Assembly: GCF_022846255.1 (NCBI RefSeq) | Contig: NZ_AP025682.1 | Length of the DNA stretch: 64,000 nt | Strand: one strand, 5' to 3' | Source: Escherichia coli | Lineage (GTDB): Bacteria; Pseudomonadota; Gammaproteobacteria; Enterobacterales; Enterobacteriaceae | Shown here: positions 336 through 45,001 of the stretch, piece after piece | Layout of the letters: each line of letters starts with the position of its first letter | Numbering within the stretch: the first letter of the stretch is position 1 | Translations under genes and position numbers: made by a program | The notes under the pieces: generated by a model | Seen by the model: only the letters and a program-made list of their open reading frames with translations | Told to the model about the DNA's origin: nothing | Database searches by the model: none

Positions 336-1493
336 TCACTCCACCTTTTCATCAATCCAGTCCGCCCACCATTGCATCATTTCTCTGCGTTTATCGAGAT
401 ACTGAGCATGGTTGTAAATCCCACGCACAGATCCGCCGTTGGCATGTGCCAGTTGCACTTCAATAGCGTCAGCAGGCCATTCGTGCTCGTTCATAATTGT
501 GCTGAATTCATGCCTGAATCCGTGACCGCTTTCCAGACCCTCATAGCCGATTTGTTTGATCACAAGCAATACCGCGTTCTCGCAGATTGGCTTCTTCTTA
601 TCGTTGCGCCCGGCAAAAACAAACTCTGATACTGGTTTAGTGATGGAGCTTAGCGTAGTGAGAAGTTCAACCACCTGGTCTGACATAGGAACAACATGAA
701 TCTTGCGGCCCTTCATCACACTGGCGTCGATAGTGATAATCCTGTTTTCAAAATCGACGTTCTTCCATTGCATGGAGCGAAGCTCTTTCGTTCTTAGGGC
801 TGTGTAGCGTAAAACTTTGGTCGCAATGAGCGATATGATGCTTCCTGAAAATGTTGCCAGTGCTTTGTTGAATGCAGGGATCTGGTCTGCTGGGAGAAAC
901 GGGAAGTTCTTCTTGCGGTATCCCTTCATGGCGTCAGCAAGGTCAGGTGCCGGGTTATATTTAGCCCTACCAGTGACAATAGCGTAACGGAAAACCTCGC
1001 CGCATCTTCTGCGGGCTTTGTTGGCTCGCTCCATTGCACCGCGATCTTCAAATCTGCGGATTACTTCCAGCAGTTGCATCGGCTCAATATCCTGAATTTC
1101 AAGGCCGCCGATGATAGGTAAAATGTCGTCATCAAACATTTTTGCAAGTTCAGTTGCATAGCCTACTGACCAGACTTGCTTCTTGTGCTCGTACCATTCC
1201 TTGTAAATCGCACTAAAGGAATTGTTGTTAGACGAAGCCTTTTTCGCTTTTACCGGATCGATGCCAACCGAGATGTCTTTCCTCGCGGTCCATGCTTTAT
1301 CTCTTGCCTCCTGCAAAGTCATTAGCGGATATTTTCCTACGGTCAGGATTTTCTCCTTACCGTCAATCTTGTAGCGAAGCTGCCATACCTTTTTCCCTGA
1401 CACAGGGACATAAAGGTACAGGCCATTACCATCGAGTAGGCGGTATGGTTTTTCTTTCGGCTTTGCTGCTTCAATCTGCTTAACGGTGAGCAT
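336..1493 (-). CDS. intS: Prophage integrase IntS (tyrosine recombinase, P4-like)
   Basis: ORF-track frame 336..1529; translation MLTVKQIEAAKPKEKPYRLLDGNGLYLYVP... has an integrase N-terminus and a catalytic C-terminal domain. Start placed at ATG 1493 (385 aa); an upstream in-frame GTG at 1529 is possible. Confidence 0.9.
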   Translation of the reverse strand: MLTVKQIEAAKPKEKPYRLLDGNGLYLYVPVSGKKVWQLRYKIDGKEKILTVGKYPLMTLQEARDKAWTARKDISVGIDPVKAKKASSNNNSFSAIYKEWYEHKKQVWSVGYATELAKMFDDDILPIIGGLEIQDIEPMQLLEVIRRFEDRGAMERANKARRRCGEVFRYAIVTGRAKYNPAPDLADAMKGYRKKNFPFLPADQIPAFNKALATFSGSIISLIATKVLRYTALRTKELRSMQWKNVDFENRIITIDASVMKGRKIHVVPMSDQVVELLTTLSSITKPVSEFVFAGRNDKKKPICENAVLLVIKQIGYEGLESGHGFRHEFSTIMNEHEWPADAIEVQLAHANGGSVRGIYNHAQYLDKRREMMQWWADWIDEKVE

Positions 1494-1654
1494 GGGTAAA
1501 AATCCGGTGGGTAAAATTATTTTATCCACTTTTTACCCGTCATGGAGTGCGGCTGTCAACGATCTGACGCGAACCATTACGAACTGTGAATCTACGGAAG
1601 GCTTGATATTCAGGGGATTTTGCGGACTGGTACGGATGGGAGCGAACTGATAAA

Positions 1655-1729
1655 TGGTGTCCCCTGCAGGAATCGAACCTGCAATTAGCCCTTAGGAGGG
1701 GCTCGTTATATCCATTTAACTAAGAGGAC
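1655..1729 (-). tRNA. argW: tRNA-Arg (anticodon CCU)
   Basis: 75-nt sequence whose reverse complement reads GTCCTCTTAGTTAAATGGATATAACGAGCCCCTCCTAAGGGCTAATTGCAGGTTCGATTCCTGCAGGGGACACCA: cloverleaf-compatible, CCT anticodon, encoded CCA end. Confidence 0.85.
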
Positions 1730-35625: not shown

Positions 35626-35781
35626 GCCTGATGCGACGCTGGCGCATCTTATCAGGCCTGGGCTGGAGTAGCCCCGTAGGTCGGATAAGGCGTTTACGCC
35701 GCATCCGACAGTCGTTGCCTGATGCGACACTGGCGTGTCTTATCAGGCCTACGCTGGAGCAGCCCCGCGCCGCATCCGACA
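35626..35781. repeat. BIME cluster (at least four REP units in alternating orientation)
   Basis: Repeated GCCTGATGCGACG...CTTATCAGGCCT and GTAGGTCGGATAAGGCGTTTACGCCGCATCCGACA units. Confidence 0.75.
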
Positions 35782-42199: not shown

Positions 42200-42973
42200 A
42201 TGTCCGAGAATAAATTAAACGTTATCGATTTGCACAAACGCTACGGCGAACACGAAGTGCTGAAAGGGGTTTCACTGCAAGCGAATGCCGGAGATGTAAT
42301 TAGCATCATCGGATCGTCGGGATCGGGGAAAAGTACCTTTCTGCGCTGCATTAACTTCCTCGAAAAACCGAGCGAAGGATCGATCGTGGTCAATGGCCAG
42401 ACGATCAATCTGGTGCGCGACAAAGATGGTCAACTCAAAGTCGCCGATAAAAATCAGCTGCGCTTACTGCGCACACGCCTGACGATGGTATTCCAGCACT
42501 TCAATCTCTGGAGCCATATGACGGTGCTGGAAAACGTCATGGAAGCGCCGATTCAGGTGTTGGGCCTGAGCAAGCAGGAAGCGCGCGAGCGGGCGGTGAA
42601 GTATCTGGCGAAAGTCGGGATAGACGAACGTGCGCAGGGGAAATATCCGGTGCATCTTTCCGGCGGTCAGCAACAGCGTGTTTCCATCGCAAGGGCGCTG
42701 GCAATGGAACCGGAAGTTTTACTGTTTGATGAACCTACCTCGGCGCTCGATCCTGAACTGGTAGGCGAAGTGTTGCGTATTATGCAGCAACTGGCAGAAG
42801 AGGGGAAAACCATGGTGGTGGTGACTCACGAAATGGGCTTTGCTCGCCATGTTTCTACTCACGTCATTTTTCTCCATCGGGGGAAAATAGAGGAAGAAGG
42901 CGCGCCGGAGCAGTTATTTGGCAACCCGCAAAGCCCTCGTCTGCAACAGTTCCTTAAGGGATCGCTGAAATAA
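42200..42973 (+). CDS. hisP: Histidine/lysine/arginine/ornithine ABC transporter ATP-binding protein HisP
   Basis: 257 aa with Walker [13 protein letters not shown] signature LSGGQQQRV and Walker [12 protein letters not shown]. Confidence 0.95.
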
Positions 42974-42979
42974 TTCCCC

Positions 42980-43009
42980 CTCCGGTAGCTAACGCTGCCG
43001 GAGTATTTT
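42980..43009 (+). terminator. Weak terminator-like hairpin after hisP
   Basis: CTCCGG / CCGGAG stem with 12-nt loop followed by TATTTTC. Confidence 0.35.
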
Positions 43010-43169
43010 CAAGGGAAATTTGCGAGTCCGCTTCCGCTGAAATGTAAAAGTTGCAGCACGCTAAAAATACTTCTGAATTCGCTGTCCAAAGATAAAAACT
43101 GCCTGCTGCATTGGGTGTTAATCGTGGTTATTGTCGCGTCATCTTAAATTTGAGGGGTGACGGAACGCC

Positions 43170-44060
43170 ATGACAATATCGACAACTTCCACGCCGCATG
43201 ATGCGGTATTTAAATCTTTTTTACGCCATCCAGACACCGCCCGGGATTTTATTGATATTCATCTCCCCGCGCCGCTGCGCAAACTGTGTGATTTAACGAC
43301 GCTTAAACTGGAACCAAACAGTTTTATTGATGAAGACCTGCGGCAATATTATTCCGACCTCTTGTGGTCTGTGAAAACGCAGGAGGGAGTGGGTTATATT
43401 TATGTGGTGATAGAGCACCAAAGTAAGCCGGAAGAATTAATGGCTTTTCGCATGATGCGCTATTCCATTGCGGCGATGCAAAACCATCTTGATGCAGGCT
43501 ATAAAGAGCTTCCATTGGTGATCCCGATGCTGTTTTATCATGGTTGCAGAAGTCCTTATCCTTATTCACTCTGCTGGCTTGATGAATTTGCCGAGCCTGC
43601 TATAGCCCGCAAAATATATTCATCGGCTTTTCCGCTGGTGGATATTACCGTGGTGCCAGATGACGAGATTATGCAACATCGCAAAATGGCGCTGTTGGAG
43701 TTAATTCAGAAACATATTCGTCAGCGCGATCTGTTGGGATTAGTCGACCAAATTGTTTCGCTGCTAGTTACAGGGAACACTAATGACAGACAGCTAAAAG
43801 CCCTGTTTAATTATGTATTACAAACGGGGGATGCCCAGCGTTTCCGTGCATTTATTGGTGAGATAGCGGAACGCGCACCACAAGAAAAGGAGAAACTGAT
43901 GACCATTGCTGACAGATTACGTGAAGAAGGCGCAATGCAGGGCAAACACGAAGAAGCCCTGCGCATTGCTCAGGAGATGATGGAAAAAGGATTTGACCAC
44001 GAAGTCATCCTGACGCTGACCCGACTTTCACCAGACGATCTTATCGCGCAAAGCCACTAA
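43170..44060 (+). CDS. rpnB: Recombination-promoting nuclease RpnB (YfcI; transposase_31 / PD-(D/E)XK-like)
   Basis: 296-aa [36 protein letters not shown]..., typical Rpn/YhgA-like N-terminus. Confidence 0.85.
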
Positions 44061-44107
44061 CCCTGTAACACCGGGAGTTAACTGGCGGATGTTTGCAGTA
44101 AACCACA

Positions 44108-45001
44108 TCAGCGAACGACATCCGCCAGCGCCTCTTCTAAATCGTACCAGCGAAACGCAAAACCCGCTTCTTCCAGCTTTTTTGGCAGCGTGCGTTGACC
44201 GCCTAATACCAGAACTGAAGATTCGCCCATTAACAACCGAATGGCGGTCGCAGGGACGCGCAAAATGGCCGGGCGATGCAGCGCATGACCCAGTGCATGG
44301 GCAAATTGTTCATTGCGCACCGGGTAGGGCGAAACCATATTAAATGGCCCGCGCAGCTCTTTATCCAGCAGCCAGAGAATACCGTTGACCATATCATCAA
44401 TATGAATCCAGGCCAGATACTGCCGACCAGAGCCAATCGGCCCGCCCAGGCCAAAACGAAATGGCGGCAGCATTTTACCGAGAATACCGCCATCCGGTGC
44501 CAGCACTACGCCGGTACGCAGCAGGCACACTCGCGTTTTGTCACTTTGTGCCCGGCAGGCAATTTCTTCCCAGCGGGCGCAGAGTTTATGGGTAAATTCG
44601 TTATGCGGCGGTTCCTCTTCGGTAACCACCACTTCACCTAAGTCGCCATAATAGCCCGTTGCCGAGCCGGAAATGAGTACCGACGGCGGCGTGTCGCTGG
44701 CATTAATCAAATCGACCAGTTTTTGCGTGATATTCCAGCGGCTTTGGCAGAGACGCTCTTTTTGCTCGTGAGTCCAGCGTTTATCAGCAATCGGCTCTCC
44801 GGCCAGGTTGATTACCGCATCAACGCCGTTGAGGTTACTTTGATCGGCAAGCCCTTGCCATAGTGTCACCCGAGGGCCGAGAACAGAACTGGCTTTCTGC
44901 GGGTTACGCGTCATTACCGTGATTTGATGGCCCAGCTCCAGCAAACGTGGAATCAAATGGCGACCAATTAATCCCGTCCCTCCGGTGATCACTATGTTCA
45001 T
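44108..45001 (-). CDS. yfcH: NAD-dependent epimerase/dehydratase-family protein YfcH
   Basis: 297 aa, N-terminal Rossmann motif [16 protein letters not shown]. Confidence 0.85.

Follow-up and report, generated by a model that had tools for sequence, protein, structure and literature searches.

The window (the whole stretch of Escherichia coli DNA analysed, 64,000 nucleotides) carries an open reading frame of 296 codons, which lies downstream of hisQ, hisM and hisP on the same strand and is followed by yfcH, folX and yfcG on the opposite strand. The order of these neighbours is that of E. coli K-12 and of 5,425 of 5,426 complete E. coli genomes, and the gene is annotated as rpnB. Its orthologue in Escherichia marmotae occupies the identical locus. 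The following features define the frame and its surroundings:

43170..44060, + strand: long ORF of rpnB (RpnB_L), 296 aa and a stop, from ATG to stop codon (ORF list, profile matches)
43191..43796, + strand: Transposase_31/YhgA-like domain, residues 8-209 (Pfam limits)
42980..43011, + strand: terminator-like hairpin and T-run after hisP, with a 10-bp stem (7 G-C pairs) followed by TATTTTCAAG (terminator scan)
43137..43162, + strand: possible hairpin in the rpnB_L leader, covering part of the Shine-Dalgarno (SD) sequence (RNA fold centroid; weak, z-score only -1.7)

The product was matched by the Pfam family PF04754 (Transposase_31; residues 8-209, E = 4.5e-91, 304.4 bits against a cut-off of 21) and by the NCBIfam model TIGR01784, [quoted passage not shown] (187.8 bits against a cut-off of 52.1). 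These profiles, the synteny and the annotation concur with the original prediction, which had named the gene rpnB/yfcI, placed it between the his transport operon and yfcH, and recognized a YhgA/Rpn PD-(D/E)XK domain at its N-terminus. The score obtained with NF007361, the equivalog model of RpnA, was 467.2 bits against a cut-off of 583; the window protein is a paralogue of RpnA and not RpnA itself. RefSeq entry WP_137501124.1, named RpnB [E. coli], is the exact window protein and recurs on 34 contigs, while K-12 RpnB (b2305), also of 296 aa, shares 285 of 296 residues with it (96% aa identity). The best match in Salmonella was considered as a possible rpnB orthologue and rejected; it is located at the rpnA locus. 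Neither a separate downstream rpnSs copy nor a second rpn gene was found within the window. The identification of rpnB is far above chance expectation and is confirmed: the window contains an intact, ordinary and previously described gene.

The residues of the PD-(D/E)XK core are in place, namely D11, D63, E82, Q84 and R94, together with D165 in a PDDE motif. These are the positions mutated in RpnA (D11A, D63A, E82A, Q84K, R94A, D165A; PMC5350276), all of which are found in window RpnB at identical numbers and show full or at least 90% conservation among 45 homologues. Loss of catalytic residues, which the original prediction had named as evidence that would count against it, was looked for and has not occurred. 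An AF2 model of the full-length protein, of low confidence (mean pLDDT 63), placed a helix, three strands, a helix and a strand over residues 9-124. When this low-confidence model was compared with the PDB using Foldseek, the nuclease domain had no match at E<=0.001; the weak matches included BamHI, PaqCI, Card1, MspJI and XisH. In a comparison with K-12, codons 1-243 gave a dN/dS of 0.02 (dS 0.077, dN 0.002), which indicates strong purifying selection on the nuclease part. Divalent-cation-dependent DNA endonuclease activity has been demonstrated in vitro for K-12 RpnA, and toxicity and SOS induction in vivo for K-12 RpnB (PMC5350276, PMC10400941). By analogy with the K-12 allele, from whose experiments its toxicity is taken, RpnB_L can be regarded as a toxic PD-(D/E)XK DNA endonuclease.

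The expression signals in front of the long frame are modest. The SD of rpnB_L is weak (GAGGGG, 43152-43157, 12 nt from the ATG). The terminator-like hairpin after hisP, which is retained in strains lacking rpnB (see below), appears to part the his transport operon from rpnB.

A check for a small toxin-antitoxin-like ORF overlapping the C-terminus, recommended in the original prediction, revealed one: a 53-aa product, RpnB_S, starting in frame at M244 (43899). Three features are associated with it:

43899..44060, + strand: nested in-frame rpnB_S (RpnB_S antitoxin), 53 aa, M244-H296 and a stop (published mutant, conservation, match to 7th0)
43887..43892, + strand: Shine-Dalgarno sequence AAGGAG of the internal start, encoded by codons K240-E241, 6 nt before the ATG
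43783..43811, + strand: candidate promoter for a short rpnB_S transcript, ATGACA-N17-TTTAAT (deduced from sequence and conservation)

Such an RpnL/RpnS "gene-within-gene" toxin-antitoxin arrangement was described by Zhong et al. (PNAS 2023; PMC10400941). The start of RpnB_S was assigned to M244, since the published D29stop mutation of RpnB_S corresponds to K-12 D272 (244+28). This places it within the range of about 50-80 codons from the stop that characterizes the internal starts of RpnL/RpnS pairs. The tetrapeptide M-T-I-A occurs at the internal start in nearly all listed homologues, with M and T invariant, and the K-E pair encoding the SD is conserved in nearly all homologues. At the nucleotide level, eight of the nine rpn genes in the comparison carry the identical AAGGAG; AGGGAG is found in rpnD and GGGGAG in the divergent rpnC. 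The equivalents of K240R+E241D+M244L in RpnA abolish RpnA_S (PMC10400941). In an RNA fold of 43818-43930, both the internal SD and the AUG were unpaired.

Residues 244-295 matched the sequence of RpnA-S in PDB entry 7th0 (phmmer, E=0.0037). The AF2 model of RpnB_S (pLDDT 79) has helices at 3-30, 34-41 and 45-52, and its best PDB match was again 7th0, with a probability of 1.00, TM scores of 0.69/0.78 and an rmsd of 2.3 A. RpnB_S is thus predicted to fold as a three-helix bundle like RpnA_S, with which it shares 43% identity. Pfam searches with RpnB_S alone returned sub-threshold noise only (RecX_HTH2, DEP, PPR), and PF27070 (HTH_Rpn_C) appeared only in precomputed annotations of homologues, with no match in the Pfam scans of the window. 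Designer pentatricopeptide-repeat proteins held the top phmmer rank in the PDB (E down to 9e-17). These were rejected as a repeat-summation artefact, because the individual stretches had i-Evalues of 22-200 and the score was summed over 10 identical repeats; the signal reflects the resemblance of one helix-turn-helix.

When 42900-44250 was scanned with a simple sigma-70 model, no + strand promoter was called near the internal start or in the hisP-rpnB spacer. The scan accepts a -10 hexamer only if its second base is A and therefore missed the string ATGACA-N17-TTTAAT, which was found by reading the sequence and is backed by conservation. Its -35 element (ATGACA, 43783-43788) and -10 element (TTTAAT, 43806-43811) match 10 of the 12 consensus bases, and the predicted transcript would start near 43818, approximately 80 nt before the internal ATG. 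Both strings are conserved, at a fixed spacing, in rpnB, rpnA, rpnD, rpnE, the Salmonella gene at the rpnA locus and a Kluyvera rpn gene. Among the 133 codons with an invariant amino acid in six divergent rpn genes, only 18 are codon-identical. These include N205, D206, L212, F213 and N214, which underlie the candidate promoter, as well as K240 and E241, which underlie the SD. Identical codons adjoin one another, in runs of at least two, only beneath the SD and the predicted -35 and -10 elements (7 of the 18). Plain coding sequence fails to explain why synonymous sites should be frozen at these places across paralogues. Internal transcription start sites have been reported in all K-12 rpn genes (PMC10400941). 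The internal promoter of rpnB is predicted to lie at 43783-43811.

The experimental evidence for two products comes from K-12, where RpnB_S neutralizes the toxic full-length RpnB_L, as judged by an SOS reporter and growth assays. SOS induction by RpnB_LS was specifically blocked by RpnB_S, and RpnB_L* was more toxic than RpnB_LS (PMC10400941). K-12 RpnB (YfcI, b2305; Kingston et al. 2017, PMC5350276; Zhong et al. 2023, PMC10400941) shares with the window gene the hisP-rpnB-yfcH locus, the length, the catalytic residues and the internal SD and ATG. The window RpnB_S differs from the experimentally tested K-12 RpnB_S at 10 of 53 residues, which belong to a recombinant tract at residues 271-283 (discussed below). 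Because the frame holds a nested gene, and because K-12 RpnB_S neutralizes RpnB_L, the locus is interpreted as a two-product toxin-antitoxin module. Activity and neutralization are taken from experiments with the K-12 allele, and we assign this reading a probability of roughly 85%. Of the "stand-alone recombination-promoting nuclease" of the original prediction, the nuclease free of IS hallmarks stands, but the gene does not stand alone, since a second gene is nested at M244 and two products are expected.

The principal alternative is the single-product view shared by the original prediction and the 2017 study. It holds that only the 296-aa protein is made, that this protein, by nicking or cutting DNA, promotes the acquisition of foreign DNA independently of RecA, and that the internal ATG is a mere methionine codon. 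Overexpressed RpnB did increase RecA-independent recombination 19-fold, kill recA cells and induce SOS (PMC5350276), and the intact catalytic residues agree with this; as regards the activity of RpnB_L, the single-product view is compatible with the nested one. However, ribosome profiling, SPA-tag immunoblots and genetics in K-12 revealed a separate RpnB_S (PMC10400941), and the internal start codon, the SD and the DNA upstream of them are identical in the window, save for three synonymous changes in the 130 nt preceding the internal SD/ATG. Moreover, basal recombination was unchanged when the four active rpn genes were deleted (PMC5350276). With the frozen synonymous sites added, a single product is improbable.

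The distribution of rpnB was examined in complete E. coli genomes. An rpnB match was absent from 671 of 5,426 (approximately 12%), in which the flanks were present. In the other 4,755 genomes the gene is single-copy and always at the same locus, never on plasmids. All ten of the rpnB-less loci sampled have the same contracted hisP-yfcH interval. Two of the rpnB-less loci, L008 and L009, were compared with the window by local alignment, as MAFFT misplaced the gap, and the following features were delimited:

43080..44081, no strand: segment missing from rpnB-less chromosomes, running from the region upstream of rpnB through the ORF to 21 nt past its end (alignment with L008 and L009)
43614..43643, + strand: rpnB stretch kept as a 30-nt relic in the rpnB-less haplotype, 27/30 identical (L008 and L009 aligned), ending in CTGGTGGAT (43635-43643)
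44082..44090, + strand: right-hand deletion junction CTGGCGGAT, repeating 43635-43643 in direct orientation with 8/9 bases identical

Homology to both loci stops at 43079 and restarts at 44082, and one base of the junction is variable (T in L008, C in L009). The local alignment of the relic scored 45, compared to a maximum of 29 in 2,000 shuffles; for the 27 nt found only at the empty site, the score was reached by 2 of 2,000 shuffles. Because the empty site contains these 27 nt of other sequence, including the relic of mid-rpnB, and not a clean excision, the absence of rpnB is ascribed to deletion. Other strains carry a broken rpnB: KL53, among the top whole-locus matches, has L18stop, and insertions of ISVsa5 and IS1A were also found. 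The gene is dispensable in E. coli.

The deletion and these disruptions in other strains, together with the weakness of the leader promoter and SD, could be taken to mean that rpnB is a decaying remnant, whose ORF is intact by chance in the window while its function has been lost in the lineage. This is very improbable, more so than a single product. The ORF is of full length with its catalytic residues kept, and the low dN/dS over 243 codons is seen at a dS of 0.077. In addition, the exact protein is found on 34 contigs and the internal expression signals are intact.

The repeat search found no inverted repeats bracketing the ORF (the repeats detected were all short, with lengths of 10-21 nt, and either imperfect or internal), and no target-site duplication was detected at rpnB. 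The gene is not an IS element, since it lacks both, in line with the original prediction, which had seen no inverted repeats or other mobile-element hallmarks and had singled out membership of an intact IS as grounds for rejecting it. That the locus is an IS transposase inserted between hisP and yfcH, as suggested by the Pfam name Transposase_31, by the NF007418 match ("ISNCY family transposase", E=3.6e-138), by the "putative transposase" annotation and by its presence or absence in different E. coli strains, is the least credible of the alternatives and barely conceivable, given an NF007418 score of 459.8 below the cut-off of 583, an empty site that is a deletion with a relic, a single fixed chromosomal locus shared with E. 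marmotae, and the conclusion reached in PMC10400941 against this origin for the Rpn family.

Two sites of variation between alleles of the two-product module lie in the nested gene:

43929..43943, + strand: length polymorphism of four amino acids, located in helix 1 of RpnB_S at 11 residues past the internal Met; the window has the short form EEGA-MQGKH
43980..44018, + strand: mosaic patch that differs from K-12, spanning codons 271-283 and, in RpnB_S, the end of helix 1, the turn and helix 2

Strains E2348/69, 55989 and MRY15-117, and also E. marmotae, carry EEGRNDGLILGKR at the first site and encode 300 aa. This +4-aa allele is present in 1,225 of 5,426 complete E. coli genomes (approximately 23%). 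Length variation in steps of four amino acids, 8-20 residues past the internal Met, is a hallmark of RpnL/RpnS pairs and is displayed by the 296-aa and 300-aa alleles of rpnB. Across homologues, RpnS lengths are 49, 53, 57 and so on up to 77, through GxxxGxxx repeats at the polymorphic site, and the full proteins vary in the same 4-aa steps up to 320 aa. Of the 11 amino-acid substitutions relative to K-12, 10 are at the second site, and 17 of the 30 nucleotide differences fall within ORF nucleotides 811-847. The dS of 0.79 and dN of 0.55 in the patch differ from the values for codons 1-243, and the patch was therefore most probably imported as a divergent tract. The window-type patch is found in 866 of 5,426 E. 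coli genomes (16%), O157:H7 included.

Several known systems resemble rpnB in part. RpnA (YhgA) has the same domain order, catalytic numbering, internal Met 244 and K-E-encoded SD, and RpnA_S (PDB 7TH0) shares the three-helix fold of RpnB_S. However, rpnA lies at a different locus (feoC-bioH), RpnA_S has 49 aa compared to the 53 aa of RpnB_S, and RpnB is not neutralized by RpnA_S (PMC10400941). In classical type II toxin-antitoxin systems (e.g., YhaV-PrlF), a small, helical, HTH-like protein antitoxin present in excess likewise binds and inhibits a protein toxin, but the two are encoded by adjacent genes, whereas the Rpn toxin and antitoxin occupy one reading frame. Since this frame is shared, the Rpn antitoxin is a copy of the C-terminal domain of its toxin and the two necessarily co-vary. 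The plasmid-borne RpnP2_LS belongs to the same family and has the same nested L/S architecture as rpnB (PMC10400941). RpnP2 is the only Rpn shown to lower plaquing, for T-even phages at pH 8.5; it was assayed on a low-copy plasmid with its native promoter, and its deletion from the native host ECOR13 also lowered protection (PMC10400941). The window rpnB, in contrast, is chromosomal, syntenic and single-copy, with housekeeping neighbours (his transport, yfcH, folX) and no defence island, and no matching defence model for it was found in PADLOC-DB. The role in defence suggested by the original prediction is plausible for this gene, but neither the database nor the genomic context speaks for it, and protection has been published for RpnP2 only.

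In the model that we propose for the two-product module, RpnB_L would act as a Mg-dependent, largely sequence-nonspecific DNA endonuclease, whose C-terminal three-helix domain mediates oligomerization. A separate and probably stronger expression unit inside the gene (promoter 43783-43811, SD, ATG 43899) would yield RpnB_S alone, presumably in excess over RpnB_L. RpnB_S would bind RpnB_L because the oligomerization helix is shared, and DNA cleavage would be blocked in the resulting complex (2:2 in the RpnA paradigm). If the complex were disturbed, possibly by phage infection or alkaline conditions, the nuclease would be freed and would damage DNA, leading to SOS induction, growth arrest or abortive infection. 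The chromosomal rpnB copy may in this way have an antiphage role. The surface of interaction would evolve fast, by gain and loss of the 4-aa repeat in helix 1 and by import of mosaic tracts in helix 2. As the same nucleotides encode both, toxin and antitoxin would always change together.

A more speculative proposal is that the helix-2 patch is a second specificity determinant of RpnB_L/RpnB_S, beside the published four-amino-acid repeat number, and, relatedly, that ATGACA-N17-TTTAAT (codons 205-214) is a family-wide internal promoter kept by synonymous-site selection. We consider this unlikely, with odds well below even. If true, the three common E. coli rpnB allele classes (K-12 type, window type and +4-aa type) would be mutually non-neutralizing "immunity groups", shuffled by short-tract recombination.

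The single CDS of the annotation appears to hide a toxic nuclease and an antitoxin that has an SD, and probably also a promoter, of its own inside the coding sequence, and the deletion, tagging or overexpression of rpnB that ignores the nested gene leads to misleading phenotypes. The population data (the deletion with its relic, the +4-aa allele, the helix-2 patch and the frozen synonymous sites) are a modest addition to a described system and do not define a new one. They may be useful for testing the specificity classes of rpnB or its contribution to phage defence.

The open reading frame at 43170-44060 was confirmed by its ORF call, profile matches and synteny as rpnB (yfcI), located between hisP and yfcH as the original prediction had stated. 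Residues 8-209 of the product match Pfam PF04754 (Transposase_31, YhgA-like; E=4.5e-91), and the protein scores above the cut-off of NCBIfam TIGR01784 (Rpn family recombination-promoting nuclease/putative transposase); it does not reach the equivalog thresholds of RpnA (NF007361) or of the 'ISNCY family transposase' model NF007418. The genes hisQ, hisM and hisP lie upstream on the same strand, and yfcH, folX and yfcG lie downstream in convergent orientation, which is the gene order around rpnB (b2305) in K-12. The flanks of rpnB were found by megablast in 5,425 of 5,426 complete E. coli genomes, with annotation always in the order hisP, rpnB, yfcH. Earlier work has described the gene together with its nested antitoxin and its variability, and an identical protein is annotated in RefSeq on 34 contigs (WP_137501124.1, 'recombination-promoting nuclease RpnB [Escherichia coli]'). 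The RpnB and HisP sequences are present in a collection of 15 billion proteins, and the exact YfcH sequence (44108-45001, - strand) is absent from it. Since, in addition, there is no very close relative among the complete genomes, the best being 98.5% identical over 20 kb, the window seems to represent a poorly sampled E. coli lineage.

An insertion sequence was rejected as an explanation of rpnB: no inverted repeats bracketing the gene were found, and in the complete E. coli genomes that carry it, it is single-copy, chromosomal and always at the same locus. The orthologue in Escherichia marmotae is 91% identical and also lies in the context hisJQMP-rpnB-yfcH-folX.

The nuclease part is intact and constrained. 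The functional residues defined by mutagenesis of the paralogue RpnA, D11, D63, E82, Q84, R94 and, in a PDDE motif, D165 (PMC5350276, Kingston et al.), are all present with the same numbering; an alignment of 45 sequences shows each of them to be invariant or conserved in at least 90%. Codons 1-243 differ from K-12 by 12 synonymous changes and one non-synonymous change (dN/dS 0.02). The full-length AlphaFold model shows the helix, three-strand, helix, strand order of the PD-(D/E)XK core at low confidence (pLDDT 63), and its nuclease domain has no significant Foldseek match; the putative fold is therefore assigned from family membership.

In K-12, all five rpn genes have internal transcription and translation starts, from which the C-terminal domain is made as a separate small protein, RpnS, an inhibitor that binds the full-length, toxic RpnL (PMC10400941, Zhong et al., PNAS 2023). 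The small protein of K-12 RpnB was seen by chromosomal SPA tagging, and RpnB_L with a mutated internal start exceeded the wild-type gene in toxicity. RpnB-dependent SOS induction was suppressed by RpnB_S and not by RpnA_S, and suppression was lost when D29 of RpnB_S was replaced by a stop codon (PMC10400941). Because D29 corresponds to K-12 D272 when counted from M244, M244 is the internal start. The corresponding features in the window are:

43170-44060, + strand: rpnB (ORF list), ATG start, 296 codons
43783-43788, + strand: -35 element ATGACA of a candidate internal promoter, read from the sequence
43806-43811, + strand: -10 element TTTAAT of the same candidate, 17-nt spacer from the -35, read from the sequence
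43887-43892, + strand: internal Shine-Dalgarno sequence (SD) AAGGAG, 6 nt from the ATG
43899, + strand: internal ATG start (M244), the same codon as the K-12 start
43899-44060, + strand: nested ORF rpnB_S, 53 aa

The small ORF overlapping the C terminus, for which the original prediction had advised a search, is thus present. Of the stand-alone nuclease it proposed, a nuclease gene free of IS features stands, but a single product does not, given the nested rpnB_S with its SD. Nearly all of 106 listed homologues (at least 283 aa) have the M-T-I-A start and, ahead of it, the K-E encoded by the AAG GAG of the SD. The AlphaFold model of RpnB_S (pLDDT 79) has three helices, and the PDB offers a single convincing counterpart, the crystal structure of RpnA_S, 7TH0 (probability 1.00, TM 0.69/0.78, rmsd 2.3 A, 43% identity; sequence-level E=0.0037). 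A search of the 64-kb window found neither another rpn gene nor a detached copy of rpnS.

The helix-turn-helix at residues 253-285 (43929-44030) resembles the consensus pentatricopeptide (PPR) motif 'GKLDEALKLFEEMVEKGIKPDVVTY'. Designer PPR proteins rank first in a PDB sequence search solely through summation over ten identical repeats, Pfam PPR is sub-threshold (13.7 bits against a cut-off of 25), and the likeness is probably convergence of a helical hairpin.

A promoter-scanning tool made no call near the internal start. The candidate ATGACA-N17-TTTAAT matches 10 of 12 consensus positions and lies ~80 nt upstream of the internal ATG. Its spacing is kept in K-12 rpnA, rpnB, rpnD (with TTAAAT instead of TTTAAT as the -10) and rpnE, in E. 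marmotae rpnB, in an rpn gene of Kluyvera and in a Salmonella gene that sits at the rpnA locus. Codon usage was compared in six genes (51-91% identical). At 133 codons the amino acid is invariant and degenerate, and the same codon is used in all six genes at just 18. Seven of these are N205-D206 (-35), L212-F213-N214 (-10) and K240-E241 (SD); nowhere else do two or more such residues adjoin. The pattern is good indirect evidence that functional DNA or RNA signals overlie the coding sequence, but stops short of mapping a transcription start. The SD of RpnB_L is poor (GAGGGG, 12 nt from the ATG), which fits the published excess of the small over the full-length product, and may be partly buried in a weakly predicted hairpin (z = -1.7). 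On the - strand, a cluster of promoter-like sites (43346-43377; best TTCACA-16-AATAAT, 10/12 positions) is antisense to the 5' half of rpnB, and a predicted 81-aa antisense ORF, of purely hypothetical function like these sites, lies at 43324-43569.

Variation at the locus was surveyed in the 5,426 complete genomes. A 300-aa allele with four extra residues was found in 1,225 (23%). Its sequence 11 residues after the internal Met is EEGRNDGLILGKR, against EEGA-MQGKH in the window, which corresponds to the four-amino-acid repeat polymorphism already published (PMC10400941). In more distant homologues the same site is lengthened by GxxxGxxx units, giving an RpnS of up to 77 aa. Ten of the 11 amino-acid differences from K-12 fall in residues 271-283, the end of helix 1 and helix 2 of RpnB_S, with 17 nucleotide differences inside 37 nt. 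Because dS (0.79, about ten-fold up) and dN (0.55 versus 0.002) are both raised, import of a divergent tract is a likelier origin of the patch than point mutation in place. It recurs in 866 genomes, including O157:H7 strains. In P0030, an E. coli homologue of 361 aa annotated 'ISNCY family transposase', the C-terminal RpnS module is tandemly duplicated (KERLMTIAERLRQEG twice), as if an rpnE-like gene had fused with its downstream small-copy gene (ypaA/rpnE_Ss), a case mentioned in PMC10400941.

In 671 genomes rpnB is missing and both flanks are kept. Ten sampled loci of this kind, including the ATCC 25922-type 'Seattle 1946', share the same contracted hisP-yfcH interval (821-824 bp). In the two that were aligned (L008 and L009), homology to the window ends at 43079 and restarts at 44082, and the intervening 27 nt include a remnant of mid-rpnB sequence (27/30 identical to 43614-43643; score 45, maximum 29 in 2,000 shuffles), joined to the right flank via the direct repeat CTGGTGGAT/CTGGCGGAT. 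The absence of rpnB is therefore a secondary deletion; the site is not one that was never occupied. At 44082-44128, where rpnB and yfcH converge, there is a perfect inverted repeat with 11-nt arms separated by 25 nt (CTGGCGGATGT / ACATCCGCCAG). It extends across the junction of the two genes and into the stop codon of yfcH, and the deletion has its right-hand junction at the left arm. A canonical terminator was rejected here, with a T-run on neither strand.

Independent inactivations include an L18stop nonsense codon in KL53 (locus L001, 3271-4161), an ISVsa5 (IS4-like) insertion splitting the gene in strain 3985 (L005, 766-3006) and an IS1A insertion in YZ22PE67 (genome match H83). KL53 also carries an IS1B copy between yfcG and yfcF. 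In MRY15-117 (L007) and R32_14_1F (L010), a trans-sulfuration enzyme gene and then nhaC, not yfcH, lie 3' of rpnB. The last ~10 residues of MRY15-117 RpnB differ (SPEELLNQKQ), placing the breakpoint inside the 3' end of rpnB/rpnB_S, at about 44042.

Elsewhere in the window, an intS-like prophage integrase gene (397 aa, 336-1529, - strand) adjoins tRNA-Arg(CCU) argW (1655-1729); at 336-1729 (- strand) the window edge thus carries the end of a CPS-53/KpLE1-type prophage that holds its attachment site. The first ~250 nt are not common to the best-matching genomes. Rfam naRNA4 (RF02564, nucleoid-associated noncoding RNA, REP-derived) was matched at 35679-35749, + strand (80.3 bits against a cut-off of 59.5).

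The neighbourhood of rpnB consists of housekeeping genes, PADLOC has no model matching it, and phage protection is published only for the plasmid RpnP2 (PMC10400941); the trigger and any antiphage role of the chromosomal gene are conjectural and unproven. The anatomy of the gene and its evolutionary signatures were observed directly in this analysis. We put at roughly 85% the reading of rpnB as a nested toxin-antitoxin, in which toxicity and neutralisation would carry over from experiments on the K-12 allele. RpnB_L would be a DNA endonuclease, toxic and with little sequence specificity. RpnB_S, separately produced from the same frame and sharing its oligomerisation helix with RpnB_L, would sequester it in an inactive hetero-oligomer, and release of RpnB_L would lead to DNA damage.
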